A DNA stretch of 64,000 nucleotides from a bacterium HR35 (GTDB lineage: Bacteria; Patescibacteriota; Minisyncoccia; UBA6257; HR35), in NCBI GenBank assembly GCA_002898235.1, contig BEIL01000003.1, positions 2,264 to 66,263 of the forward strand, read 5' to 3'. A program made the position numbers and the translations under genes. Position 1 is the first letter of the stretch. The number at the start of each line of letters is the position of its first letter. Positions 1-39,734 of the stretch are shown here, piece by piece. The notes beneath the pieces are model-generated. The model was not told the DNA's origin, searched no databases, and saw nothing but the letters and a program-made list of their open reading frames with translations.

Positions 1-327
1 ACTGCCTTCGAGGGAGTAATGAACGAGCAACTGGAAAGCCTCATCCTGATCGCCAAGGGGTTAGCAAAAACCGAATCAGAACGCAATGACGTTGACGCTG
101 TTATCCAAGCACATCTCAGCGGCGAAAAGGTAATGGGGCAGTTTAAACAACTTCTGACCCGCATCGTTCAGAACTTCCTCGAGGAGTTTCAAGAAAAGCG
201 AGCGGAGGTTCTGCGGGATCCTTCTTATATCTCGGCTATTCTTGAAAGGGGTGCCGAGATAGCTAAGGATAACGCAGAAGAAACGCTTAGCGCCGCCATG
301 GATGCTTTGCAACTAAAAAGGGGCTAA
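1..327 (+). CDS. C-terminal part of a tryptophanyl-tRNA synthetase-like protein (5' truncated by window edge)
   Basis: Frame is open from base 1. The ending 'FQEKRAEVLRDPSYISAILERGAEIAKDNAEETLSAAMDALQL' resembles the bacterial TrpRS C-terminal helices. GC is about half, far above the rest of the window. Confidence 0.65.
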   Translation, partial: TAFEGVMNEQLESLILIAKGLAKTESERNDVDAVIQAHLSGEKVMGQFKQLLTRIVQNFLEEFQEKRAEVLRDPSYISAILERGAEIAKDNAEETLSAAMDALQLKRG

Positions 328-355
328 GAGGTACAAAACTCTTAGCCCCTTTTTA
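314..355. terminator. Intrinsic terminator (bidirectional type)
   Basis: Perfect 17-bp inverted repeat taaaaaggggctaagag / ctcttagcccctttttA with an 8-nt loop and A/T tracts on both sides; overlaps the stop codon of ORF 1-327. Confidence 0.85.
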
Positions 356-360
356 AAATT

Positions 361-1551
361 ATGAAAAATTTGCGGTACATAATTAATAATAGAAAAACCA
401 AATTTTATGAAATATTAAAAGAAATAGCACTAGAAGAAAATAGATCCTTTAAAGATATTATAAAAGAGTATAACCAATTACTAAAAGAAAGCAAATTTTC
501 AAATAAAAATTTAAACAAAATAATTAAAAAATTCGGATATACTAAAATTTCCAGAAAATTCAGTTTATATGGGTATAAACTAAATTATAAGTTTTCTCAT
601 TATTATAATTTAGAGATATTTAAAAAAATTCCTCCACAAGAAGTAGCTATCGTAACAGGTTTCGGTCCTACAAATCCACCAACAGCTGGAACTCTAGCAT
701 CTATTTTTAGAGCAATCGAATTGCAAAAAAATACAGGGGTTTATACCCATATAACAATATCGGAATTTGGCGCACTAAATTCTAGACAAAGGCCATTGGA
801 AGAATTAATTCAAAACTCATATAAGTTTATTTCTTTTATTAAAGAATTAGGATTTAATCAGAAAAATGGAGAAATTAGAACCCATAACGACCATGATCAT
901 GCAAGAATATTTTCTCTTGTTGCAAGTGTTTTAACCACTAAAGATCTTTTAAAAAATCTTGAAGTTACTTATAATACCTACAAAAGATTGAATTTATTAG
1001 GTAATGATTTCTCGAGAATGGTTAGCAGAGCTTATGTAATATCAGATATCTTATTACCAATAATCCGGGATAAAAAACGCGGCGTAATAGTACCATTAGG
1101 ATTAGAAGAACATCATCATCCATATCTAGCAAGAATAGTTCTCGAAAGATTGAAATTAAAATATAAAAATTTGATTCGTCAAGATGCAGATGTAGGAGCA
1201 TTATATAATAGAATTATTCCAGGGCTTTTCCCGTATTTTAAAATGTCAAAAAGTATTCCGCAGTCCTCTATTAATTTAGGAGATAATGTTGAAGAATTAC
1301 AAAAAAAAATTATTAATTGTAAAAAAATAGACGAAGAAATTATTTTAAAAATGATGTCTCTGGTTTCTGATTGGGATGAAAATAAATTAAAAAAAGCTGA
1401 AAGGGCATTTAATAATCTAAAAAAAGATTACAGAAGCTGGGTAAAGTTTAAATTTGATTATTTAAATTTTTTCATCAAAATAAAAAATATTTGGGAAAAT
1501 ACGAAGTATCCTAAAAATTTTAATTTACATAAAGAAATTTTTAAAAAATAA
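361..1551 (+). CDS. Class Ic aminoacyl-tRNA synthetase paralog (TrpRS-like, archaeal-type layout) with degenerate HIGH motif
   Basis: IVTGFGPTNPPTAGT in place of TGxxPSG..HIGH; VPLGLEEHHHPYLAR in place of VPVGxDQxPHxxLxR; intact KMSKS followed by SSINLGD. Confidence 0.7.
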   Translation: MKNLRYIINNRKTKFYEILKEIALEENRSFKDIIKEYNQLLKESKFSNKNLNKIIKKFGYTKISRKFSLYGYKLNYKFSHYYNLEIFKKIPPQEVAIVTGFGPTNPPTAGTLASIFRAIELQKNTGVYTHITISEFGALNSRQRPLEELIQNSYKFISFIKELGFNQKNGEIRTHNDHDHARIFSLVASVLTTKDLLKNLEVTYNTYKRLNLLGNDFSRMVSRAYVISDILLPIIRDKKRGVIVPLGLEEHHHPYLARIVLERLKLKYKNLIRQDADVGALYNRIIPGLFPYFKMSKSIPQSSINLGDNVEELQKKIINCKKIDEEIILKMMSLVSDWDENKLKKAERAFNNLKKDYRSWVKFKFDYLNFFIKIKNIWENTKYPKNFNLHKEIFKK

Positions 1552-1607
1552 AAAAACCTGTCTTTAAATTAATCTCTTAAAAATATACAGCTTAATATTG
1601 TTTTTGC

Positions 1608-2783
1608 TTATTCTAAATTTATAGCGTTCAAGAGGAAATTGAAATTCTTTTTATAATCTAACCCTGATATTACTGAGTAGCATTTTACATTTCTAAATAA
1701 TCTATTTAACTCTCTTTTCATGTTTGCTTCTTCTTTGAATTTATTAAATTTGATTAACTTTCTAAAAAGTTCAGTTGTAGGAGCAAAGCTTATTTCTAAA
1801 AATCTATTTACAATTTTTACTGGGTTTATTTTTTTTATAGCCATTTCTGTTGCGTTTTTTTTAAGGCTGACATCAAGAACGTGGGTTATTGTTTTTCTTA
1901 TTACATTATTTCTTTCTTTACATAAATTTTCGAAGTAGATTGATATTTGTTTTTTCTTACCGAGTTGAAATAATTGTTTTTTAGATTTAATTAAACTGTC
2001 TAAAAAACTATTCTTAATTATAATGCCACATCTATTCAAAAAATCCTTAAACTCAAAATATGTTCCAATCCTTATATTAAAATAATTTCTTACATTATAA
2101 TCAAGGATTTTACCAAATTTAGTTATATAAGTAGTTTCCTCAGTTACAATTTGCCAATTATTCTCTAAGAATAACAAAGAAAAAGTGGTTTTCCCGCTTA
2201 GAGAGGGACCGGTTATTAAAATATTATACTTGCCATTACTTACCAATCCTCCATGAATTGCGTATAAATCCCCACAAGCCAAATATGGTATCAATAACAA
2301 AATATTAATCATTGTTATAGCTTTTTTTTCGTTAGATGTTACAATTAAAGAATAATTTGATTCTGTATTATAAATACAGTAAAGATATTCATAACATTTG
2401 ATAATATAAAATTTTTCATCGTTTGTACATTTAGCTTTTGAAGTTTTATAAGTTGCTTTATTAAATTTTTCAACTTCATAATTTGTTAACCAAGCCGAGT
2501 TTTGAAATAAATATTTTACTTCCCTAAAAATATCTTTGTTATTGGTAATAAATATCTTAATAACTTCATTAAAATTATCTGATTTATTATTTGATTTTTT
2601 AAACAAATTATTAAATACCGAGCATAATTTCTTCAAACTATCAAAATATAGGCTATGATTACAGACAATATCAGTTTTTAAATCACTGCCTTTTAATGCA
2701 AAAGATGAGCAGTTATAATCATGTTTTATTGTTTTAATGCTTTCGTTAAAAATTTTATCAATTTTTATGGTTAAATCCATCAT
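1608..2783 (-). CDS. HPr kinase-related P-loop kinase
   Basis: AIHGGLVS...ITGPSLSGKTT (His motif + Walker A), then QIVTEE where HprK-like kinases have DD. Confidence 0.7.
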   Translation of the reverse strand: MMDLTIKIDKIFNESIKTIKHDYNCSSFALKGSDLKTDIVCNHSLYFDSLKKLCSVFNNLFKKSNNKSDNFNEVIKIFITNNKDIFREVKYLFQNSAWLTNYEVEKFNKATYKTSKAKCTNDEKFYIIKCYEYLYCIYNTESNYSLIVTSNEKKAITMINILLLIPYLACGDLYAIHGGLVSNGKYNILITGPSLSGKTTFSLLFLENNWQIVTEETTYITKFGKILDYNVRNYFNIRIGTYFEFKDFLNRCGIIIKNSFLDSLIKSKKQLFQLGKKKQISIYFENLCKERNNVIRKTITHVLDVSLKKNATEMAIKKINPVKIVNRFLEISFAPTTELFRKLIKFNKFKEEANMKRELNRLFRNVKCYSVISGLDYKKNFNFLLNAINLE

Positions 2784-2801
2784 TTCTCTATTTTTATCAT
2801 T

Positions 2802-3917
2802 TTATATAAGTTTAAATTTTTTTATGATATCATAAGAAAATACTCTTTCAATTAAATCACCATGATGTTTCATTTTAATCTCAGGATTATACTGATCGAA
2901 AATCACGTTAATAAAATCGTCATTGTTTATATAATTTCTGAATTTAAAAACTAGATTTTTAACATTATCTATCTCTAAAATATCTGGAAATATTTCAGAA
3001 ATATAATTTAAAGCAAAAAACACATATTTATCAAAACCGTACTTACAAGAGACTTCCAATATTATATCTAGGTTAATCTTGTTAAAATAAGATTGAATAA
3101 AAGTATATATATCAACGAATTTATATAAGTCTAAAACCTTCCTTTTCTTAATCACGTCTATTAAAGCTGATTCCTTATAGAAGTGAATGCATAATTGAAT
3201 AAATAAATATTCTTTTTTTAAAGTATAAATAAAAAAATTGTTATCAATAGGAATAAGAGTTTTTTCTTTTAAAAAACATTCTACTATTTCGCCATTAGAT
3301 TTATTAGATTCCCAATCTAAAGAAAAATTAACGTCCACATTAATTGTTTTAAGAGTATTTTCATCAACAGTTTTAACAAAAGGAGCTGTCTCGCCTTTAG
3401 TATTCATATATTGTGTAACAACCTCTTGTGGAAATTTTTCAATTGTGTTTTTTTTATAATTATATTTACCCTGAATAAAACCTAATTTATACAAAATATC
3501 TTTTACTTGCAGAATAGAGTTTCTAGATATTAAAATATCAATATCATTAAAAGCTCTAGCTCCAAGAGGATAAATAGTAAAAGAAAAAACGCTTCCCTTT
3601 AAAAATACGTGTTCTATATTTGCTTTTTGTAATTCAGAAGAAATGATTTTAATATATTCTTTTTGTAACATAGCTCGTATATATTGTGCTTGATTAATCA
3701 TATATAAAGTAAAAAAAACAGGAAAATCTAATTTTTCTAAGCATCCTATTGTTTTTAGAGTTTCGTACGCAAGGCCAGCAACGCGATGATAACATAAATA
3801 TCCTAGAATCTCGATCCAATTTAAGTTGTTATCTTCGATTATTTTTAGCAATTCATCTCTATTTCTTTTATTTCCTAATCTTACTAGCTTTAACACTGCT
3901 TCGTATTCTTTTTTCAT
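2802..3917 (-). CDS. Nucleotidyltransferase family protein (NTP_transf_5-like)
   Basis: VFLKGSVF...YPLGARAFNDIDILI signature; N-terminal NWIEILGYLCYHRVAGL; late 'QLCIHFYKE...KFVDIY'. Confidence 0.8.
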   Translation of the reverse strand: MKKEYEAVLKLVRLGNKRNRDELLKIIEDNNLNWIEILGYLCYHRVAGLAYETLKTIGCLEKLDFPVFFTLYMINQAQYIRAMLQKEYIKIISSELQKANIEHVFLKGSVFSFTIYPLGARAFNDIDILISRNSILQVKDILYKLGFIQGKYNYKKNTIEKFPQEVVTQYMNTKGETAPFVKTVDENTLKTINVDVNFSLDWESNKSNGEIVECFLKEKTLIPIDNNFFIYTLKKEYLFIQLCIHFYKESALIDVIKKRKVLDLYKFVDIYTFIQSYFNKINLDIILEVSCKYGFDKYVFFALNYISEIFPDILEIDNVKNLVFKFRNYINNDDFINVIFDQYNPEIKMKHHGDLIERVFSYDIIKKFKLI

Positions 3918-3938
3918 TAATAATATTATCCATGATTA

Positions 3939-4823
3939 TTAGGTTACTTCAAAGTAATTATTTGCCGTGCAACCGACCTCTAATTGTACAGGGAATTCTT
4001 CGTCTAATCTTTTCCAATCTTCATAAAGAATTTCAAAGTTTTCCGTATCTAAAATTTCATCTATATGATCCTTATTTGAGCTTTTGAATACAATTTCCAC
4101 ACAATCTTGTTGCAAAAGCCATTTAACAGCAATTTGGACATTCGTTTTATTGTACTTTTTAGCAACTTCATCTAACAATTTATAAGTACCTTCAGGATAA
4201 AATGGGTCTGGACATCCTGGATACAGTAAACGAATAGGCCTCCACGCAATAAATCTAATTCTATTTTTTCTACAATAATCAATAATCTTTTTTCTTTGAG
4301 ATTCACGGCATACTAAATTATATTGATTTTGAACTGCGTATACTGGTTTTTTTAATAATTGAGAGTATTTTTTTATAGTATCGATTCCAACATTACTTAA
4401 TCCAATATTCTTTATAAGACCCATATCTAGAAGTTTATTCAGAGCTGCGATTGTTTCATTTATAGGAATTTCTGGATTCTGTTTGTGAATGTAATACACA
4501 TCTATATACGATGTTTGGAGTCTTTCGAGAGATTTCTTACAAGATTCAATAACAGCATCATAAAAAAGATTGTATTCACGAACTTTAGTGGCTATAACAA
4601 GCCTATTTCTAGAAAAGCATTTGATTGCTTCTCCTATCAACATTTCTGTCTTTCCACCCGCATAACTTTCTGAAGTATCTATTTGAAATATACCTTTTTT
4701 AATTGCATATCTAATAGCTTCAACATCCCTCTCGTCATCGTTATTTGGATCAGATGTTACATACCCTCCCATACCAAATGTTCCTAGCCAAATTTTTTGT
4801 TTGTAATAACTTCTTTTAATCAT
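3939..4823 (-). CDS. Aldo/keto reductase
   Basis: LGTFGMGG, IDTSESYAGGKTE (catalytic D/Y), IATKV, SLERLQTSYIDVYYIH, IGLSN, QNQYNL. Confidence 0.9.
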   Translation of the reverse strand: MIKRSYYKQKIWLGTFGMGGYVTSDPNNDDERDVEAIRYAIKKGIFQIDTSESYAGGKTEMLIGEAIKCFSRNRLVIATKVREYNLFYDAVIESCKKSLERLQTSYIDVYYIHKQNPEIPINETIAALNKLLDMGLIKNIGLSNVGIDTIKKYSQLLKKPVYAVQNQYNLVCRESQRKKIIDYCRKNRIRFIAWRPIRLLYPGCPDPFYPEGTYKLLDEVAKKYNKTNVQIAVKWLLQQDCVEIVFKSSNKDHIDEILDTENFEILYEDWKRLDEEFPVQLEVGCTANNYFEVT

Positions 4824-4894
4824 AATTATATATATTATAATTTTAATTGTTTTGTTTAAATAATTTAAAATTGCAATTTAATCAAATTATTAAA

Positions 4895-6256
4895 CTATTC
4901 ACAAAGCAAAAGCTTGGTTAATCTATTAAATTTTTCAACATCTCCACCAGAATAATAAATCAAATCTTCTATAACCCTAATACCTTCCCCCGAGTTTATG
5001 ACTTCTACTGCTAAATTTGCACCATATTTCAAATCATTAACTATTTCTAAACCTAAAAGATTTAAAGCTACTTCCATAGCTACAACCTGTTTAATACTTT
5101 CATTACTTTTACCAGCCAAAAGTTTAATAAATTCACTTAAATTTTCTATTGTATTTTGTCTACTTTCGATATACTTAATTGGCTTAAAACAAAAACCAAA
5201 ATCTTTCGGAGTAACTGTTTTAATAACTATTTGTCCTTTTATACTTTGAGCAATTTCAGTATTACCATTTATTGATACTTGATCAATAACTGGTTTACCA
5301 TTATAATTTTTACCTTGAATCACAAGTATATTTTTTTTAGGATATAATTTACTCAAGATAGCTAAGCATAATTGTGTTGAACCCCTTGTTAACCCATAAT
5401 TTATTAAATCAGCGTCAATTGGATTAACTATAGCTGCTCCACCAACCAGACCAGCGAAAACTTGCACATCATATAAACGACCATTATAAACTTGATTTAG
5501 CTTTGGTACAATTCTATTAATATCAAATATTCCAACTCCTGTTTTAAGCATAATTTCTATCATTTTTTCTATTGGCAAATTTAAATTTATACCCGCGCTT
5601 TCAAAAATATCGGTAGAACCAGTTACACTTGAAGTAGATCTAGAAGCTGTTTTTGTTATTAAAATATTTTTTCCTAGAACTTTACCTACTGCTGCGGTAA
5701 TAATAGCATTCATAGAACTAATGTTTAGTAATTTAGTTTCTTTTTTACCACTACCAGCTAAATTTATAACTTTGACTTCGCTAGTCAATTTTATCTTTCT
5801 ATCAATATCAAAATTATCTAAACTAAAAGCTGATTTTATTATTGCTAATCCATAATTAACTGCTATTTCTAGATTTTTAGAATTATTCATAAATGACCAT
5901 AAAGCGCCGTAAAAATAACCCATTAAAATATCCCTTTTTTGTGGGTCATTAGGATATGTAAGAATATCTAAAAATAAATTACCTATTTCAAGTGGAGACA
6001 AGATACCTCCATTAAGCAAAAAAACACATTTTTCGAGAATTTCGTTATTAGCAAATTTTCCATAATCTTTATTTGGAAATTCTTTGAATTTCGAAAAGTA
6101 ATACAAAAGGATAATACCTTCATAAACTTTAAAATTGCGATTAGAATTATTAATAAGTTTTAATATTAAATAAGCTTCTGCTTTATTGAAATCTTTACCA
6201 GAAGTTAATTTTTGAGTAAATTTAACGATTTTTTTTATAATATTTTCGTCCATCAT
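4895..6256 (-). CDS. Anthranilate phosphoribosyltransferase (TrpD)-like protein with altered substrate motifs and N-terminal extension
   Basis: NLAGSGKKETKLLNISS..TKTASRSTSSVTGSTDIFESAGINL aligns by eye to TrpD GTGGD..NIST..KHGNRSVSSKSGSADVLEALG; TPKDFG and C-terminal 'AVEVINSGEG'. Confidence 0.75.
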   Translation of the reverse strand: MMDENIIKKIVKFTQKLTSGKDFNKAEAYLILKLINNSNRNFKVYEGIILLYYFSKFKEFPNKDYGKFANNEILEKCVFLLNGGILSPLEIGNLFLDILTYPNDPQKRDILMGYFYGALWSFMNNSKNLEIAVNYGLAIIKSAFSLDNFDIDRKIKLTSEVKVINLAGSGKKETKLLNISSMNAIITAAVGKVLGKNILITKTASRSTSSVTGSTDIFESAGINLNLPIEKMIEIMLKTGVGIFDINRIVPKLNQVYNGRLYDVQVFAGLVGGAAIVNPIDADLINYGLTRGSTQLCLAILSKLYPKKNILVIQGKNYNGKPVIDQVSINGNTEIAQSIKGQIVIKTVTPKDFGFCFKPIKYIESRQNTIENLSEFIKLLAGKSNESIKQVVAMEVALNLLGLEIVNDLKYGANLAVEVINSGEGIRVIEDLIYYSGGDVEKFNRLTKLLLCE

Positions 6257-6263
6257 TAAAATT

Positions 6264-7700
6264 TCAACCTTTAATTACTCCAATTGGAACTAATTTGACT
6301 ATTTTTTTAGCAATGCCAATATTATGAACAACATCAACAACTTCTGACACATCTTTATAAGCTTCTGGTGCTTCTTCAGCAAGACCAGACATACTTCCAG
6401 CAGCAACTGAAATCCCTCTTGCTTCTAATTCTTTTTTTAATTCACTTCCTCTTATTTTTCTTTTTGCTTCTGCTCTGGACATCATTCTTCCTGCGCCATG
6501 TGGAGCTGAACCAAAAGAAATCTTTTTAGCTAATTCTTGGCCAATTAAAACATAACTACTTGTTCCCATTGATCCTGGAATTAGTGTTGGCTGACCAATT
6601 TGACGATATTTTTCAGGAAGCTCAGGGTGCCCTTGCCAAAAAGCCCTAGTTGCTCCTTTTCGATGAACTAATAATTTTTTATTATCGTATTCTTCAATCT
6701 TAACTATATTGTGAGCAATATCATAAACTTGTTTTAATTCAATTTCTTTACCAAAAACTTTTTTAAATGCTTTTCTAACTTCATAAGTAATAAGTTGCCT
6801 GTTAGTAAAAGCAAAATTAGCTGCAGCTTTCATTGCTGCTAAATAATCTTGACCAAGTTCATGACTATAAGGAAAATAAGCTAATTCTCTATCAACTAAA
6901 TCAATTCCTTGTTTATCTAAATATCTTAAAGCTTCTCGAATATAATCAGTGGCAACTTGATGACCTAAACCTCTTGAGCCACAATGAATTAAAACACAAA
7001 CTTTATTTTTTTCTAAACCCAATTTTTTACCAATTTCTTCATCAAAAATTTCAGCTACTCTTTGAATTTCAACAAAATGATTGCCAGCACCAATTGTTCC
7101 TAATTGATCCCTACCCCTATCTTTAGCTGTTTTCGAAACTTTATCAGCTTCAGCTCCTTCAATTTTCCCATAACTTTCAGTTGCTTCTAAATCTTCTTTT
7201 TCAGCATAACCAATTTCATAAAGCCATTTTGCTCCTTCTTCTAAAACTTTTTTCATTTCATCATTATTTAACTTCCAAAAACCTCCTCGACCAACACCAG
7301 AAGGAACCTCTTTAAAAATTTGCTCTGTTAACTTTGGTATTTTATCTTTAATTTCCTCATAATAAAAAGGAGAAACCAAAAGACGAACGCCACAATTGAT
7401 GTCATACCCACAAATCCCAGGAGAAATAATTCCCTCATTTGTATCAAAAGCAGCAACACCTCCCACTGGCGAGCCATAGCCTTCATGGATATCAGGCATT
7501 GCTAAGGAATATTTAAAAATACCAGGTAAAGTGGTTAAATTAACTAATTGCCATAAACTTTTATCTTCTAAAATATCAGCCAACATTTTTTCCGAAGCAA
7601 AAAGACGAGCTGGCACTTTCATATCTTCACGAAAACTTTGAGGAATTTCCCAAATATAATCTGAAATTTTAATTAAATCTTTTTTCTCAGGTTTCTTCAT
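6264..7700 (-). CDS. rtcB: RNA-splicing/repair ligase RtcB
   Basis: MPDIHEGYG, GYDINCGVR, GNHFVE, HCGSRGLGHQ, HRKGATRA, HGAGR motifs. Confidence 0.97.
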   Translation of the reverse strand: MKKPEKKDLIKISDYIWEIPQSFREDMKVPARLFASEKMLADILEDKSLWQLVNLTTLPGIFKYSLAMPDIHEGYGSPVGGVAAFDTNEGIISPGICGYDINCGVRLLVSPFYYEEIKDKIPKLTEQIFKEVPSGVGRGGFWKLNNDEMKKVLEEGAKWLYEIGYAEKEDLEATESYGKIEGAEADKVSKTAKDRGRDQLGTIGAGNHFVEIQRVAEIFDEEIGKKLGLEKNKVCVLIHCGSRGLGHQVATDYIREALRYLDKQGIDLVDRELAYFPYSHELGQDYLAAMKAAANFAFTNRQLITYEVRKAFKKVFGKEIELKQVYDIAHNIVKIEEYDNKKLLVHRKGATRAFWQGHPELPEKYRQIGQPTLIPGSMGTSSYVLIGQELAKKISFGSAPHGAGRMMSRAEAKRKIRGSELKKELEARGISVAAGSMSGLAEEAPEAYKDVSEVVDVVHNIGIAKKIVKLVPIGVIKG

Positions 7701-33896: not shown

Positions 33897-35168
33897 TTAA
33901 TAATTGACAATTACTCTATAATAATCTTTATCTTCTTCTTGCCTGTAATTTAAATTCAACAACTCTTTTCGAAAATCTTCTAATTTTTCTTTGGGAACTT
34001 TAAAAATTGCCTCCCGTCTATCAAAATCATAACTTTCTAAAGAATATTTTTCGGAGAGAAACAAAACTTTTAAATAATTTTCATTTTTTTTATTTTCAAT
34101 TTTTTGAACAATTTCCAAAAGATAATCTAAACTATTTTGGATTTCCCTTAAATTACCTCTTAAAGGATGTTTAGCTAAATTTTCTTTTATTTCTTTTTCT
34201 GATCGGGAAAGTTTTGAATAATAAAAGCCAAAAACTAAAATAGCAATCAGAGAAACGACTATCAAAAAAATAGAAGCTACCAAAATAGGCCTTCTTATTT
34301 TAGTGAAAAAATAGACATTTTTAGGTTTGAGATTAAGAAAATCAAGGAAGGGTTGATCTTGAAAAATTTTCCTTAAAAGAACAACTCCGCCTTTAGCTAT
34401 AAATTCATAAGGATTAATTAAAATTGTTTGAAGATTGGAGAGGGCTGTTTCTTTAAAAGAAAAAATTAGGATTTCAAATTTTTTGTTTAAACTTTGAAAA
34501 TAGCCGATATATCTTTGAAAAAAAATTTCAAAATTAGTATTTTCGCTAATTTCTTCTAGAAATAAACTTTCTAACTTTAAATTTTCTAAATACAGGATAT
34601 GAGTAAGTTTTTCGTCAATAAAAAAAACTAAATAATTTTCGCTAAAAGTAATTTTTGCTTCATAAATTAAATTACTTAAAATGGCTTCAACAGAAGGAGC
34701 AATAAAATAAATTGTTAAATTTTCTTTAAAAAGAACCTCTAAAATAGCTTCTTCAATTTCTCTAGGGAAGAAAAAAATATCAAAATTAGCTAAATTACCG
34801 CTAAGTTTGTAAATATCTTCTTTAAAAATAAATTTATATCTTTCCAAAGGCAGAGGAAGATTGACCTGGAGATAATTTTTGATAGCTGAAGCTGGATCTG
34901 TTGTTCGGGGTATAGTAATTCTTTGAAAAAAAATATTAGGTAAATGAAGAATAATTCCTAATTCGTTTAATTTATATTTAGTTAGAAGCTCTTTTAATGC
35001 TTTTTCAAAGTTTTCTTTAAAAAAAACACCATTACTATAAATTTCTCCTTTCAAAATTTCCAATCTTTTAAGTTTAATTTCATTGTCTTTTTCTTCAAGA
35101 TCATAGTAAATTAACCTATCTGAAGAAATAAGAAGAATATCTATAATTTCTTCTTTGAATATTTTCAT
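33897..35168 (-). CDS. PilM-like cytoplasmic domain fused to TM/PilN-like segment (putative)
   Basis: GEIYSNG, LHLPNIFFQRITIP, VNLPLPLE pattern of PilM-type actin folds, then one TM and a coiled coil; weak. Confidence 0.45.
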   Translation of the reverse strand: MKIFKEEIIDILLISSDRLIYYDLEEKDNEIKLKRLEILKGEIYSNGVFFKENFEKALKELLTKYKLNELGIILHLPNIFFQRITIPRTTDPASAIKNYLQVNLPLPLERYKFIFKEDIYKLSGNLANFDIFFFPREIEEAILEVLFKENLTIYFIAPSVEAILSNLIYEAKITFSENYLVFFIDEKLTHILYLENLKLESLFLEEISENTNFEIFFQRYIGYFQSLNKKFEILIFSFKETALSNLQTILINPYEFIAKGGVVLLRKIFQDQPFLDFLNLKPKNVYFFTKIRRPILVASIFLIVVSLIAILVFGFYYSKLSRSEKEIKENLAKHPLRGNLREIQNSLDYLLEIVQKIENKKNENYLKVLFLSEKYSLESYDFDRREAIFKVPKEKLEDFRKELLNLNYRQEEDKDYYRVIVNY

Positions 35169-36712
35169 TTTGAGTATATATTTTGAATTTTAACAAATCT
35201 CTCAGAAAAGTCATTAACAAAAAAGATATCAAAACCTTCAAATTTTTTATCTACTAAATAGAGATAATAGGGATTAACTAAAAATATATTACTTTTTTGG
35301 TCCAAAATAATTTTTTCAATTTCTTGTTGAGAAGAGAAGATATCTTTAGCTGGATTAATTTTTGTTTCTAAAATTTCTTTTTCCAAAATTTTACTTTCGC
35401 TATTATTTAAATTAATGCCGGTTTGAGAGAAAAAATAAGCAAGATTAGGTGGATAACCATAATTAATTCCATAAAGAAGAGCTTGGTAATCTTTATTTTT
35501 TATTATTTCATTTAGATCGATCCTGGAGACAATTACAAAATCTATTTTAAATTTTGACTTAAGATATCTAGCTAAATCTGGGTAATAAAATGAATTAGGT
35601 AAAATAAGAGTAAAATCAAATTGAGGTTTAGCTGTTTTTTGCGGACTTAAAACTTCAACTCCTTTCAAATTTAAAATTTTTCTTACTGATGGCGAAAAAA
35701 TTCCTTCACTCTTTTCAGCATAGTTATTAAAAACATTCTTCACTATTTCTTGCCTATCGAGATTAGCATTAAGAAAATCAACAATTTCATTTGCTTTTAT
35801 TTTCTGTTGATTAAAAAAGATGCCAATAACCCTTGGTAAGACGATTTTATAAATTCTAATTCTTTTTTTAAAGCCTGAAGGTAAATTAAAATAATTAATA
35901 CCTGCTAAAGCATCAATCTCTTTTGTAAAAAAAGCAGTTAGGGCTTCTTTTTGGTCTTTAAAAATATGAAATTCAATCCTCTTTAGATAAACCTTTTCTG
36001 GAAAATACTTATTTCTTTCTAAAACGATAATTTTTTTCTTATTATTTCTAACTTCTTTCAAAACAAAAGGACCAAAACCATTTTGAGCTAAATCTAAGGC
36101 ATAAAAATCAGGAGAATAATGAGAAAAAACCTTTACCGGCAGGGGTTTGAGATAGACTAGATTATAAATTAAATAATTATCCGGGAATTTAGAAATAAAA
36201 ACGCCTTGGCTTTCGTTTATTATTTTAAATTCTAATTGAGAAAAAAACCGAGAAATTTCAGAAGGAGCGAATTTTTTAGCAAACTCTAAACCAAAGCGAA
36301 TATCTTCGGTTGTTAATTTTTCTCCATTGGCCCAATAAAGCTTATCTTTAAGAGTTATTTGAATTTCAGTTTTTTCTTTATTAACTAAATAACTTTTGAG
36401 AAATTTAGAAATAATTTTGCCGTTATAGTTTTCAAAAAGAGACGGGAAAATAATATTAGCAATTGTTTTTTCAGTATCATTAGTAGTAAGATAAGGAGTT
36501 AAAGTTTTAACATCTTCATAAACCCCTTCTCGATAAATTCCATTAGTTTTTTTACTAGTGAAAATTAGATAATCTGGAAAAATAAAAACTAATCCTAAGG
36601 CTAAAAAGGAAATAAAAAAGAAAACATAAATAGGAAAAAAATCTAATTGGCCATTTTTAATAAGCTTTCTTGTTTTTAAATAAAAATCACGAATTTCTTT
36701 ATTTATTTTCAT
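35165..36712 (-). CDS. ABC transporter peptide-binding protein (family 5)
   Basis: YREGV..TLTP, LYWANGEKLTTEDIRF, GFGPF, LERNKYF; adjacent to secG as is usual in CPR. Confidence 0.8.
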   Translation of the reverse strand: MKINKEIRDFYLKTRKLIKNGQLDFFPIYVFFFISFLALGLVFIFPDYLIFTSKKTNGIYREGVYEDVKTLTPYLTTNDTEKTIANIIFPSLFENYNGKIISKFLKSYLVNKEKTEIQITLKDKLYWANGEKLTTEDIRFGLEFAKKFAPSEISRFFSQLEFKIINESQGVFISKFPDNYLIYNLVYLKPLPVKVFSHYSPDFYALDLAQNGFGPFVLKEVRNNKKKIIVLERNKYFPEKVYLKRIEFHIFKDQKEALTAFFTKEIDALAGINYFNLPSGFKKRIRIYKIVLPRVIGIFFNQQKIKANEIVDFLNANLDRQEIVKNVFNNYAEKSEGIFSPSVRKILNLKGVEVLSPQKTAKPQFDFTLILPNSFYYPDLARYLKSKFKIDFVIVSRIDLNEIIKNKDYQALLYGINYGYPPNLAYFFSQTGINLNNSESKILEKEILETKINPAKDIFSSQQEIEKIILDQKSNIFLVNPYYLYLVDKKFEGFDIFFVNDFSERFVKIQNIYSK

Positions 36713-36717
36713 TAAAA

Positions 36718-36933
36718 TTAAACCTTAATTCTAATTAGAGAAAGCAAAAGAAAAACAAAAATCATAAACCAAGTAAAGTAATAAATTAGTTTTTCCATGC
36801 CTCTTTTTTTAAAAAAGAATTCTGTTTGAAAACCAAAAAAGGCACCACCACTAACTCCTCTTTGTTGAAGCAAAATTAAAACAACAATTAAACCACCTGA
36901 TAAAATTTGTAAAAATTCAATTAAGCCTTTCAT
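36718..36933 (-). CDS. secG: Preprotein translocase subunit SecG
   Basis: ILLQQRGVSGGAFFG..KRGMEK, two TMs. Confidence 0.9.
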   Translation of the reverse strand: MKGLIEFLQILSGGLIVVLILLQQRGVSGGAFFGFQTEFFFKKRGMEKLIYYFTWFMIFVFLLLSLIRIKV

Positions 36934-38185
36934 TTTCTCTTAATTTACGATGATATTTTACCACAAATTGATGAGCTTTTAAGTCAAGCAATTTTAGAAA
37001 TTCAGCTGTTTCTCGAGAGAAGTTTTTAAGAGAAAGCGGCGGTTTTTTTTCATCATAATAAATTTCTTCTTTGGGCTTAGCAAAGGAAATGATTTTAATT
37101 TTTTCGTCAAGTTCGGCTTCTTTAAGAGCTTGAAAAGCAAATTTCCATTGAATTTTACCTCCGTCAATTAAAATTAAATTAGGATATCCCCATTCAGGAT
37201 GATTAAATCTTCTTTTTAAAACTTCATAAATCATTCTTGGGTCATCTGGTTTTAAAACTGTTTTTATTTTAAATCTTCTAATTTTTGAAGGATTTAAAAA
37301 GCCTTCATAGAAGGAAACAAGAATTCCAACTTTAAAACTGCCTGTAAAGTGAGAGATGTCATAAACTTCAATAATTCGGGGGATATCTGGTAAATTAAAT
37401 TTTTCTTTTAATTCCAAAAGAGTTTTTCTTCTTTTATTTTCTAAAAAGAAGGGATCTTGTCCTAGGATTTGAACTTCTTCTTCTATTTTTTTAATAGCTA
37501 AGTATGTGTCTTGAAGTTTTTTAGCCAAAATTAAGTTATCTTCTGTTAATAATTTTTTCATCTCCTCTAATAATTCTTTTTTAAGATTTTTAAAATCTCC
37601 TTTAAGAATTTTTTCAACGATTTTCAAGTTTTCATAATATTTCTTTCTATCAGCTAAAGTTGGTCGAACTTCTTTAAGACAACAAAAACCAAAACACAAA
37701 CCCAAAGAGGCATTTAGACATTCTCTTAAATGGTTTTCTCGACAAGTACAAAAGGGAATTTTTTTTCTAATTATTTGAAGAAGTTGACGCAAAGCTTTTC
37801 CTTCAGAAAATGGACCGAAAATTTTAAAAAATTTAAATTTAGTCGGTTGATGAGTTAAATAAATTCGCGGAAATTTTTCTTGAGTAAAAATAATATAAAA
37901 ATAATTAGTATCGTCTCGAAGAAGTTGATTATAAACAGGATTTAGTTTTTTAATAAGGTCGCTTTCTTTAAAAATAGCTTCAGCTTCTGTCGGGGTTACT
38001 AAAATTTCTAAATCCTTAGCTTCTGTTAAAAGTTGTTTAACTTTCAGGCTAGGGTTTTTAAAATAGGAAGCGATTCTTTTTTTCAAATCTTTTGCTTTGC
38101 CTATATAAAGAACCTTACCAGATTCATCTTTAAAAAGATAAACTCCAGGTTTTTGAGGAATAGTTTTTAAATCAATTTTTATCAT
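36917..38185 (-). CDS. uvrC: Excinuclease ABC subunit C (short form, no HhH)
   Basis: PGVYLF..YIGKAKDLKKRIASYF GIY-YIG; IEVYDISH, LILIDGGKIQ. Confidence 0.9.
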   Translation of the reverse strand: MIKIDLKTIPQKPGVYLFKDESGKVLYIGKAKDLKKRIASYFKNPSLKVKQLLTEAKDLEILVTPTEAEAIFKESDLIKKLNPVYNQLLRDDTNYFYIIFTQEKFPRIYLTHQPTKFKFFKIFGPFSEGKALRQLLQIIRKKIPFCTCRENHLRECLNASLGLCFGFCCLKEVRPTLADRKKYYENLKIVEKILKGDFKNLKKELLEEMKKLLTEDNLILAKKLQDTYLAIKKIEEEVQILGQDPFFLENKRRKTLLELKEKFNLPDIPRIIEVYDISHFTGSFKVGILVSFYEGFLNPSKIRRFKIKTVLKPDDPRMIYEVLKRRFNHPEWGYPNLILIDGGKIQWKFAFQALKEAELDEKIKIISFAKPKEEIYYDEKKPPLSLKNFSRETAEFLKLLDLKAHQFVVKYHRKLRENERLN

Positions 38186-38186
38186 T

Positions 38187-39734
38187 TTAGATCAACCAAG
38201 GTAAAAGAGATTTTCCTTGAAAAAAGTTTTGGTATTTATCTAAAACGCCATAAAGGTCTAAAATTGTTGGTAAGACAAAAGTTAGATCTCCTAAAATTTC
38301 TTCTCTCCGAGGAATTTCTTTTTCCCATTCTTTAGAAATTAAATAGAAAGGAACTGGACTAAAATTGTGAGAAGTGTCTTTTGTTCCTTTTGAAAGATCA
38401 ATCATTTTTTCAATATTTCCGTGATCGGAGGTAATTATTAAAAGCCAATTCTCTTTCTTAATTAATTCAATAAATTCACTAAGCTTTTCACTTAAGTAAT
38501 CAATTGCCTTAACTGCTTTATTAAAATCGCCTAAATGACCAAAAAAATCAAACAAAGAGAGATTAGCTAAAATAAAATGAAAACTTTTGTCCCTAATAAT
38601 TAATTTTAAATAATTAAAGATTTCATCGGTTATCGTAAAAGCATTTTCTTCTGAATCTATAGCTGGTAAGATTTTTATTATTTCATTGAGGTGTTCTTCA
38701 TCGATTAAACCATTCAAATAATAGGTAATATGTTTTTTTCTAGTCTCATCAGTAATCTTAAACTGCCTTAAACCAATTTCAGAGATAATTCGAGAAAGAT
38801 TGGAACGAATTTTTTCTTGAGGAAAAATAGCTAATTGAGGTAAATCTTCAAAATAATCAACTAAAGTTAAAATTAAAAGATTTTCTTTAGAAGGACGAGG
38901 GAATTCTTGAAAATTGGGATCGAGAAAAGCTCGAGCTAATTGTTTGATTTTTTGATTTTCAAAATTAAAAAAAATAACAATATCATTATCTCTAATAATT
39001 CCTTTTTCTTCTAAAATAACTGGCTCGAGCATATCTTCTTTGAAATTTGGGTCTTTTGTTTTTTCTTGGAGAAATTCTTCTAAATTATTTATCTTTGTAC
39101 CTATTCCTTGAACTAAAGCCAAAAAGGCTCTTTGGGTTCTTAAATAATAGTTTTGAGAAGCATCCAAGGCATAAAAACGACCAATTAGAGTAGCGATTTT
39201 TCCTGGCAACTTTCTTTCTTTTAATTCTTTTAAGAAGTTAGGAATTAAATTTAAACTTGATTTTGGAGGTGAATAAGTACTATCCAAAAAGAAGTGAAAG
39301 AAAATTTCTTTTAATTGATAAGCTTTAAAATCCTCCAAAAAAGCAAAAAGATGATTAAGATCAGCCTCAACTGGTGATTGGTTTAAAGTTAAAAGAAAAT
39401 GAATACGAGAATTGTAATTAAAATAAAATTCAATAATTTTCTTAATTATTTGGTTATTTTTAATTTCTCCTTTTTCAATAGCTAAATCGATTCTAACTTT
39501 GGGGGTAAAATTGATAATTCCGGTTCCTAAGGTTAAATGACCTTGTTCGCAATTTCCTGGTTCAGTCACTGGCAAGCCAACAGAAAAACCACTTGCTTGA
39601 AGATAACAAAAGGGGTATTTTTTCTTAAGTTCTTCAAAAATATTTTTCTTAGCCAATCTAAAAGGATTGGAGATATTATTCTCTCCTTTTCCTAAGCCAT
39701 CAATTATTAAAAGACAAAGATAAGGTTTTTTCAT
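38187..39734 (-). CDS. gpmI: 2,3-bisphosphoglycerate-independent phosphoglycerate mutase homolog (degenerate active site)
   Basis: LIIDGLG, LQASGFSVGLP, GRFYALD, ITSDHGNIE, TSHNFSPVP; catalytic GNSEVGH reads GNCEQGH. Confidence 0.8.
   Translation of the reverse strand: MKKPYLCLLIIDGLGKGENNISNPFRLAKKNIFEELKKKYPFCYLQASGFSVGLPVTEPGNCEQGHLTLGTGIINFTPKVRIDLAIEKGEIKNNQIIKKIIEFYFNYNSRIHFLLTLNQSPVEADLNHLFAFLEDFKAYQLKEIFFHFFLDSTYSPPKSSLNLIPNFLKELKERKLPGKIATLIGRFYALDASQNYYLRTQRAFLALVQGIGTKINNLEEFLQEKTKDPNFKEDMLEPVILEEKGIIRDNDIVIFFNFENQKIKQLARAFLDPNFQEFPRPSKENLLILTLVDYFEDLPQLAIFPQEKIRSNLSRIISEIGLRQFKITDETRKKHITYYLNGLIDEEHLNEIIKILPAIDSEENAFTITDEIFNYLKLIIRDKSFHFILANLSLFDFFGHLGDFNKAVKAIDYLSEKLSEFIELIKKENWLLIITSDHGNIEKMIDLSKGTKDTSHNFSPVPFYLISKEWEKEIPRREEILGDLTFVLPTILDLYGVLDKYQNFFQGKSLLPWLI

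Follow-up and report, generated by a model that had tools for sequence, protein, structure and literature searches.

Why would a bacterium with a 596-kb genome keep, side by side, a second tryptophanyl-tRNA synthetase (TrpRS), a divergent relative of that enzyme and a relative of the anthranilate phosphoribosyltransferase TrpD? This question is raised by the left end of a 64,000-nucleotide stretch of bacterium HR35 (contig C3, positions 2264-66263; hereafter the window), whose genome has a GC content of about 28%, lies on five contigs and is 100% complete as judged by marker genes. Its size and gene content, together with named close homologues, point to a member of the candidate phyla radiation. 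The six contiguous non-housekeeping genes noticed there in an earlier reading of the DNA (the original prediction) proved to be intact open reading frames (ORFs) in an ORF check of the window (Table 1). They encode the extra TrpRS, a TrpRS-like protein that we call WRSL, an HprK-like kinase, a nucleotidyltransferase, an aldo-keto reductase (AKR) and a TrpD-like enzyme. We conclude that these genes belong to a real, conserved and mobile cassette that is apparently undescribed; no description of this cluster was found in the literature, most subscription papers and MIBiG lying outside the search. By analogy to known inhibitor clusters, the product of the cassette may be a small molecule that resembles a nucleotide and carries tryptophan, probably mimicking tryptophanyl-adenylate; we regard this reading as evenly poised between right and wrong.

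Conserved core and variable modules of the cassette

Homology searches returned 224 matches for WRSL and 94 for the TrpD-like enzyme, queries included; a broad WRSL profile collected 262 representatives (50% clustering), of which 94 had E ≤1e-30. For the comparison of gene neighborhoods, WRSL served to select 46 genome loci and the TrpD-like gene 46 metagenome loci. In 43 of the 46 genome loci, WRSL has a TrpD-like gene no farther than 9 kb away (at L023 it is only a remnant), and in 42 there is a true synthetase within 6 kb, namely a TrpRS in 34 and a tyrosyl-tRNA synthetase (TyrRS) in eight. Of the four loci lacking a true synthetase, three are cut off by a contig edge, and in the fourth a split trpS lies at a distance of about 7 kb. 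WRSL is present in 32 of the metagenome loci, many of which are near-duplicates; the remaining 14 span 1.3-5.3 kb each. This co-occurrence is far beyond chance and holds in unrelated taxa, with a patchy distribution. The genes form a conserved, horizontally spread cluster outside housekeeping functions, in line with the candidate cluster of the original prediction. Among the carriers that bear a name are Patescibacteria, Lithacetigena, uncultured Bacilli and Clostridia, Elusimicrobia, Acidobacteriota, Myxococcota and Micromonosporaceae; some labels of metagenome-assembled genomes (MAGs) may be wrong. Of 301 Micromonosporaceae genomes, 18 carry a WRSL-type gene. TrpD-like and WRSL domains are fused at L021, in P0224 and P0239 and probably in P0229, where the match falls below the Pfam cut-off, and P0247 is a HAD-WRSL fusion. 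In P0266 and P0284, the WRSL-type domain follows a fused stretch of 560 aa that has a motif like that of type I phosphoribosyltransferases (PRTases), perhaps another PRTase fold with the same function; this assignment is an Atlas lead (score 0.90; family in 43% of cluster members) and was not counted as evidence.

Four components thus make up the conserved core: WRSL, the TrpD-fold enzyme (in some cases fused to it), a reductase whose fold differs between versions, and a true synthetase. Reductases of three unrelated folds (AKR, short-chain dehydrogenase/reductase (SDR) and Zn-dependent dehydrogenase) occur in 39 of the 43 TrpD-bearing genome loci, counting the SDRs at L019 and L021, and the remaining four loci all lie at contig ends. 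With the queries used, no reductase was found in any of the three loci without a TrpD-like gene. The HR35 insert represents version A of the cassette, in which the core is accompanied by an AKR (15 of 46 genome loci), an NTP_transf_5 protein (16) and a kinase (16). Other versions combine an SDR with a methyltransferase, with or without a UbiA-like protein, an SDR with a flavin adenine dinucleotide (FAD)-dependent oxidoreductase and a HAD protein, or a Zn-dehydrogenase with HAD, radical SAM and glycosyltransferase proteins. At L006, L010, L016 and L017, a decarboxylase dependent on pyridoxal phosphate (PLP) adjoins WRSL, and L016 and L017 also carry a degenerate TrpRS-like ORF of about 310 aa. 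A gene for a Rel protein of about 480 aa (HD, synthetase and TGS domains) lies within 9 kb of WRSL at L007, L009, L011, L013, L020, L043 and L044, where it may only mark a shared insertion site.

The kinase and the nucleotidyltransferase had been counted among the pathway enzymes by the original prediction. Because they are present in just 16 of the 46 genome loci, they are an accessory module and not part of the core. The two genes are adjacent in all 16 loci having either, and their family names match those of enzymes that tailor ribosomal peptides in the style of paeninodin-type lasso peptides, a lead also taken up in that prediction. We consider such a role very improbable for this cassette: neither the PqqD nor the lasso peptidase family was found in the genome (lasso cyclase was not searched for), the gaps inside the insert measure only 7-71 bp, the 206 bp ahead of the extra trpS hold the best promoter match, and the pair is missing from 30 genome loci.

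Two remodelled enzymes and their synthetase partners

To judge from its fold and alignment, WRSL is a conserved, remodelled enzyme and not a decayed copy. The WRSL model (mean predicted local distance difference test score, pLDDT, 84) matches archaeal and eukaryotic TrpRS along the full length at 13-19% identity. Its residues 45-395 align with residues 12-372 of 3a04 (Z 27.8, root-mean-square deviation 3.8, 322 aligned residues, 19% identity), and the structure comparison assigns a class Ic fold including the C-terminal helical domain. WRSL scores below the canonical cut-offs, reaching 43 bits vs. 176.75 for trpS and 59 vs. 451 for the best archaeal model. No solved relative was found by sequence with a narrow profile, a profile of the sister branch returned only canonical TyrRS and TrpRS, and viral contigs contained no relative of either WRSL branch.

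The description of WRSL as a paralog lacking the HIGH motif was overstated. This position reads TAGT in HR35 and T-x-G-T in 59 of 63 family rows, and a Bacillus TrpRS (5dk4) itself has TIGN. KMSKS is kept in 59 of the 63 Trp-branch rows. In the alignment of 71 WRSL rows, among them near-duplicates and three partial sequences, every row retains the side-chain Asp, has Ser or Asp in place of the Tyr of YxxMxxD and has Glu in place of the Gln of GxDQ (71/71 each); we take this Tyr and this Gln to be ligands of the amino group in canonical enzymes. The His position of DxHAxT is occupied by Gly or Ser in the Trp branch and by Asp in the Tyr branch. In HR35, the pocket accordingly reads S..V..D and GLEE, with Gly at the His position, and of these residues only the Asp is kept.

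The TrpD-like enzyme belongs to a family that is separate from canonical TrpD in the tree and shows 44-69% identity across 93 homologues. The HR35 protein (model pLDDT 91; TM score 0.85 by target to 1zyk, with a longer N-terminal helical part) scores 100.5 bits vs. a TrpD cut-off of 199 and has GSGKK for GTGGD, KTAS for KHGN and DQ for DE. We compared 52 rows with residue numbers of M. tuberculosis TrpD (PMC9835598), mapped via a canonical TrpD. The pyrophosphate/Mg ligands N117, K135 and D251 are invariant (52/52), and S119 and T120 are Ser or Thr. In the HR35 copy, positions 117, 119, 120, 135 and 251 read N, S, S, K and D, and E252 is Gln, as in 16 of the 52 rows. Throughout the family, GTGGD has become [GS]SGK[KED], with G110 replaced by Lys, and the anthranilate-binding Asn N138 by Ser or Ala, each in 52/52. 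As far as conserved residues can tell, the donor is likely pyrophosphate-linked and the acceptor site is changed. At L006 (6059-8372), a second, more canonical TrpD-like gene (GMGGD, KHGS) and a BtpA-family gene stand beside the cassette; a 94-aa ORF in the same stretch is, by its motif, a candidate Trp repressor.

The cassette is not tryptophan synthesis. TrpE, TrpA, TrpF, TrpC and TrpB were not found anywhere in the HR35 genome, each family having been matched in 14 of 14 control genomes; for the window alone, this lack had been noted before. No trp operon lies to the left of the window, where we found the extra trpS, an rtcB copy and a P-type ATPase gene. TrpC is missing in 19 of 27 carrier genomes, and all eight with TrpC have a separate canonical TrpD. 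The least probable explanation that we weighed is therefore a decayed or partial tryptophan operon with a duplicated trpS, which would account for a TrpD fold beside TrpRS genes and for the Arg column kept in the HR35 copy. It is contradicted by the lack of other trp genes, the separate TrpD of the TrpC-bearing carriers, the replaced anthranilate-binding Asn, the strong conservation of the family and its occurrence beside TyrRS. Because the same family accompanies TyrRS, its substrate need not be a Trp-related aromatic amine either, as had been supposed.

The first gene of the window, correctly recognized as a TrpRS C terminus, is the end of a complete TrpRS (267 bits, above the trpS cut-off) that begins left of the window and has TVAN at the HIGH position followed by DLHAIT, YPVMMAAD, GEDQ and KMSKS. 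It had been proposed as a resistance or housekeeping copy. The housekeeping part fell away, as a separate trpS, 39% identical to the cassette copy, lies at C2:44741-45709; a role in supply or resistance fits. Another trpS is found elsewhere in 19 of 27 carrier genomes. In a quick tree (the WRSL and TrpD-like trees were made with FastTree), the cassette TrpRS form three clades apart from one another, of 22, 14 and 13 rows with support of 100, 100 and 95, respectively, and with no housekeeping copy inside; the HR35 enzyme belongs to the 22-row clade, which is cassette-borne only. In 22 of 22 rows of this TVAN-type clade the HIGH-position Gly is Ala, a candidate resistance signature. TVAN-type trpS genes, in HR35 and at 15 other loci, are 4-20 points richer in GC than their cassette neighbors; in HR35 the values are 48% vs. 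24-31% for the other five insert genes and about 28% for the genome.

WRSL has a sister branch, which is accompanied by a TrpD-like gene and a true TyrRS in 8/8 loci. On the Bacillus plasmid pBMB172, this version forms a compact six-gene unit encoding a WRSL-type protein, a TrpD-like enzyme, a Zn-dehydrogenase, a HAD protein, an MFS transporter and TyrS. Wider sampling added one new genome among 400 Actinomycetes and none among 390 Bacilli. The WRSL tree, calculated without nine near-duplicate loci and L174, separates 46 Trp-partnered from seven Tyr-partnered rows by a single change; because kin share labels, this split is no independent test. The TrpD-like tree mixes Trp and Tyr cassettes, the mixing forks having a support of only 89-91. 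Because the WRSL tree follows the Trp/Tyr split and the TrpD-like tree does not, WRSL would set the amino acid and the TrpD-like enzyme would build the shared part. The cognate true synthetase would have been recruited more than once, since the partner TrpRS fall into three cassette-only clades.

Layout, borders and spread of the insert

Table 1. Features at the left end of the window (positions in the window)
Feature	Position	Strand	Remarks
Extra true TrpRS, 3' end	1..327	+	whole gene C3:1592-2590, 332 aa from likely start
Terminator-like hairpin, 17-bp stem and U-run	314..355	+	between extra trpS and WRSL gene
WRSL, divergent class Ic synthetase-like protein, 396 aa	361..1551	+	Pfam tRNA-synt_1b, 36 bits
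HprK-like P-loop kinase, 391 aa, motifs HGG and GPSLSGKTT	1608..2783	-	weak P-loop/HprK matches; accessory module A
NTP_transf_5 (PF14907) nucleotidyltransferase, 371 aa, LKGS and DIDIL	2802..3917	-	110 bits; accessory module A
AKR, 294 aa	3939..4823	-	Pfam Aldo_ket_red, 181 bits
TrpD-like (TrpD-fold) enzyme, 453 aa	4895..6256	-	Pfam Glycos_transf_3, 73 bits
rtcB 3' end, right-hand direct-repeat copy	6260..6469	-	96.7% identity to C3:1176-1385

The extra trpS, which starts 671 bases left of the window, and the WRSL gene do face the four-gene operon on the minus strand, as the convergent arrangement first described would have it; the correction is that both lie in tandem on the plus strand. A near-consensus promoter (11/12) ahead of the extra trpS is the sole standout site of a promoter scan in which sites were not enriched (55 vs. 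45.7 ± 6.9 in shuffles). The hairpin behind this gene (-29.1 kcal/mol, z -7.3, equalled in 0 of 200 shuffles) is absent from the listing of a consensus terminator scan and would lower read-through into WRSL. The insert contains no tRNA gene, and the only tRNA-Trp detected in the genome is on contig C2; ARAGORN also reports a tRNA-Ile with anticodon TAT at C3:76288-76362, outside the window. No RNA sequencing run containing the insert was listed. One DNA run shares 0.06 of the words; in contigs from this run, the flanks are well covered and the insert in patches, without a joint spanning all of it. Farther along the window, on the minus strand at 33897-39734, two successive gene pairs (423 + 515 aa and 422 + 515 aa) possibly represent a tandem duplication.

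A direct repeat of about 210 bp of the rtcB 3' end (96.7% over 211 columns) encloses the 7.1-kb insert. The left copy of the repeat lies to the left of the extra trpS; the TrpD-like gene begins 7 bp after the rtcB stop. This repeat was not seen in the rtcB regions of three relatives, in which other genes fill the slot, and the hallmark gene is present in only two of 401 genomes of the class, HR35 included. Based on these three observations, the insert was acquired horizontally.

Several other cassettes have conspicuous borders. Those at L051, L064, L043, L006 and L047 are flanked by direct duplications of 200-400 bp of host gene ends, like rtcB here: by eye, these are a histidine-kinase-like 3' end, a pilin-like 3' end and a membrane-protein 5' end, and a trpS 3' fragment at L047. 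No integrase was seen at these five. Inverted repeats of 70-500 bp bound many cassettes of the type found in the candidate phyla radiation (CPR; L003, L031, L039, L040, L045 and L046). A promoter-like stretch, the same at both ends, closes these repeats immediately ahead of the TrpD-like gene and of trpS; the L031 repeat contains a tRNA-like gene, again by eye. Such cassettes could be an invertible or integrating unit; perfectly matching copies at the ends of contigs may be products of the assembly. The actinomycete cassettes L024, L025, L027, L179 and L182-L186 are often preceded by genes for a NUDIX hydrolase and a conserved protein of about 460 aa, with integrase-like genes near some of them, which suggests integrative elements. 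In G429, G436 and G441 (L144, L147), the RtcB matches break at about residue 101 inside frames that stay open over 965-1533 aa, the pattern expected of an inserted intein.

Proposed product, parallels and alternatives

The cassette resembles clusters for inhibitors of aminoacyl-tRNA synthetases by gene logic, so that its membership among them is an analogy; we compared it with passages from the papers cited here. Biosynthetic genes expected of the indolmycin and chuangxinmycin clusters are all missing from the HR35 cassette. In albomycin biosynthesis, the synthetase-like condensing enzyme AbmF stands beside AbmK, a functional cognate synthetase that gives both the donor and immunity, and homologous clusters retain this pair (PMC8323819, PMC9032320, PMC9092360). 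Likewise, our cassette pairs a synthetase-like enzyme with a true cognate synthetase that is an extra copy in many carriers. In contrast to the cassette, the albomycin pathway works with seryl chemistry on a thionucleoside and also has PLP enzymes and a siderophore, the passages mention no TrpD-fold enzyme, and the HR35 insert has neither the exporter nor the uptake moiety of such clusters. AcmF/AcmD (ascamycin) and SbzA (SB-203208) are synthetase-derived aminoacyl transferases acting on nucleoside-like acceptors (PMC12945691). AcmF has a changed active site in which a Glu contacts the aminoacyl amine, reminiscent of the Glu for Gln in WRSL, but it is a truncated class II protein without ATP-binding residues, whereas WRSL is a full-length class Ic protein with both signature motifs; SbzA, unlike WRSL, is a full IleRS that itself serves as the resistance gene (PMC12945691). 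Agrocin 84 also combines a synthetase-like adenylation protein (AgnA) with a resistant true synthetase (AgnB2) on mobile DNA, but targets LeuRS from a 17-gene cluster with an exporter (PMC8323819, PMC7916415). The indolmycin and chuangxinmycin clusters share the extra TrpRS, but yield Trp analogues and, in the passages cited, have no synthetase-like second protein (PMC7916415, PMC9437257).

Relatives of the individual enzymes differ as well. TrpD and TrpD2 share the fold and the three invariant ligands of the TrpD-like enzyme, but the DNA-binding TrpD2/YbiB is described as having lost the motif for phosphoribosyl pyrophosphate (PRPP), whereas the motif is altered here with most PRPP-site ligands kept (PMC9835598). 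[quoted passage not shown] The table passage of a review of synthetase paralogues has no TrpRS- or TyrRS-like entry (PMC9437257).

We infer the chemical steps, the product and the immunity role as follows. The TrpD-fold enzyme would join a phosphosugar, with PRPP or a pyrophosphate-activated relative as donor, to an amine other than anthranilate, and the reductase (the AKR in HR35) would fix the labile glycosylamine or a rearranged product, giving a common sugar-amine scaffold. The TAGT/KMSKS site of WRSL would hold a nucleotide-like acceptor or ATP, and Trp would be transferred from Trp-AMP or Trp-tRNA supplied by the true TrpRS of the cassette. The kinase and nucleotidyltransferase would then tailor the product, and the true TrpRS would keep translation going if this product blocks the housekeeping enzyme. 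Cassettes of the Tyr branch would follow the same route with tyrosine. A nucleotide-like product or Trp-adenylate mimic, already suggested in the original prediction, thus stays the leading idea.

A number of observations weigh against this reading. Neither PRPP synthetase nor AMP phosphorylase, another source of phosphosugar, was found in the HR35 genome, whose only type I PRTase motif is in a ComF-like gene; PRPP synthetase was likewise not found in 16 of 28 carriers (most of them MAGs of unstated completeness) and in 18/18 family relatives. Phosphoribosylation, as initially predicted, is therefore without an evident source of free PRPP: the host may supply the donor, a donor other than free PRPP may be used, or the TrpD-like enzyme may run backwards. 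There is no transporter in the HR35 insert, and four transporter queries found one nearby in only seven of the 46 genome loci. L016-L018 have WRSL and TrpRS with no TrpD-like gene in the genome. The anthranilate-binding R193 is kept in 22 of the 52 TrpD-like rows, including the HR35 copy. The cassette TrpRS is the only one found in eight of 27 genomes, and the HR35 enzyme retains the His of DLHAIT and so presumably lacks the change that we associate with indolmycin resistance. The Tyr branch comprises only eight loci, seven of them actinomycete. Finally, as its model keeps the full TrpRS fold with the C-terminal domain, WRSL may act on tRNA itself. Because of the missing PRPP source and exporter in particular, we hold our confidence at an even balance and leave room for two rivals.

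The first is that the cassette targets translation: WRSL would load tRNA-Trp with a modified, sugar-bearing amino acid or alter Trp-tRNA, in a toxin-antidote, dormancy or anti-phage system with the extra TrpRS as antidote. The full TrpRS architecture of WRSL would suit such a function, as would the scarcity of exporters, the location in a variable slot and on mobile DNA, the rel gene near seven loci and the hairpin separating trpS from WRSL. We nevertheless think it rather unlikely. PADLOC 2.0 (2023 library) matched none of the six cassette proteins to a system and gave one generic methyltransferase match among 12 proteins, the insert has no tRNA gene, the plasmid version carries an MFS transporter, and the varied tailoring enzymes (methyltransferase, UbiA-like, radical SAM, FAD oxidoreductase, glycosyltransferase) resemble the diversification of a small molecule.

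Still less probable, in our view, is salvage or detoxification, in which the TrpD-fold enzyme would cleave a ribosylated aromatic or nucleotide-like compound with pyrophosphate to yield PRPP, and the cell would recover Trp or neutralize a TrpRS inhibitor from outside. In its favor, most carriers lack TrpC and PRPP synthetase; the 5'-phosphate loop has Lys for Gly in every row, which suggests that the sugar substrate has changed, and the kinase fold includes a self-resistance family (the L018 kinase has a FomB match below cut-off). Yet some carriers are prototrophic actinomycetes with complete Trp and PRPP synthesis, the core has no importer, and a remodelled ligase that has kept KMSKS would be left unexplained.

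If the cassette does make adenylate mimics, it would represent a new class of natural products directed at TrpRS and TyrRS, a new ligase family and new TrpD-fold chemistry. SB-219383 is a TyrRS-inhibiting dipeptide from Micromonospora (PMC9054317); the Tyr branch in Micromonosporaceae is a tentative lead for it. More tentatively, and with more doubt than for the product as such, we suggest an undescribed pathway family that builds Trp- or Tyr-adenylate mimics on one scaffold by means of a TrpD-fold enzyme and an offshoot of the class Ic synthetases, even in 0.6-Mb host-dependent bacteria without Trp or PRPP synthesis, which would use host metabolites or a new sugar donor and could turn the product against the synthetase of a host or rival. 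Such a cassette would be a rare case of specialized metabolism in CPR bacteria with reduced genomes, and the missing PRPP source would then suggest either that metabolites are stolen from the host or that the donor is one not yet known.

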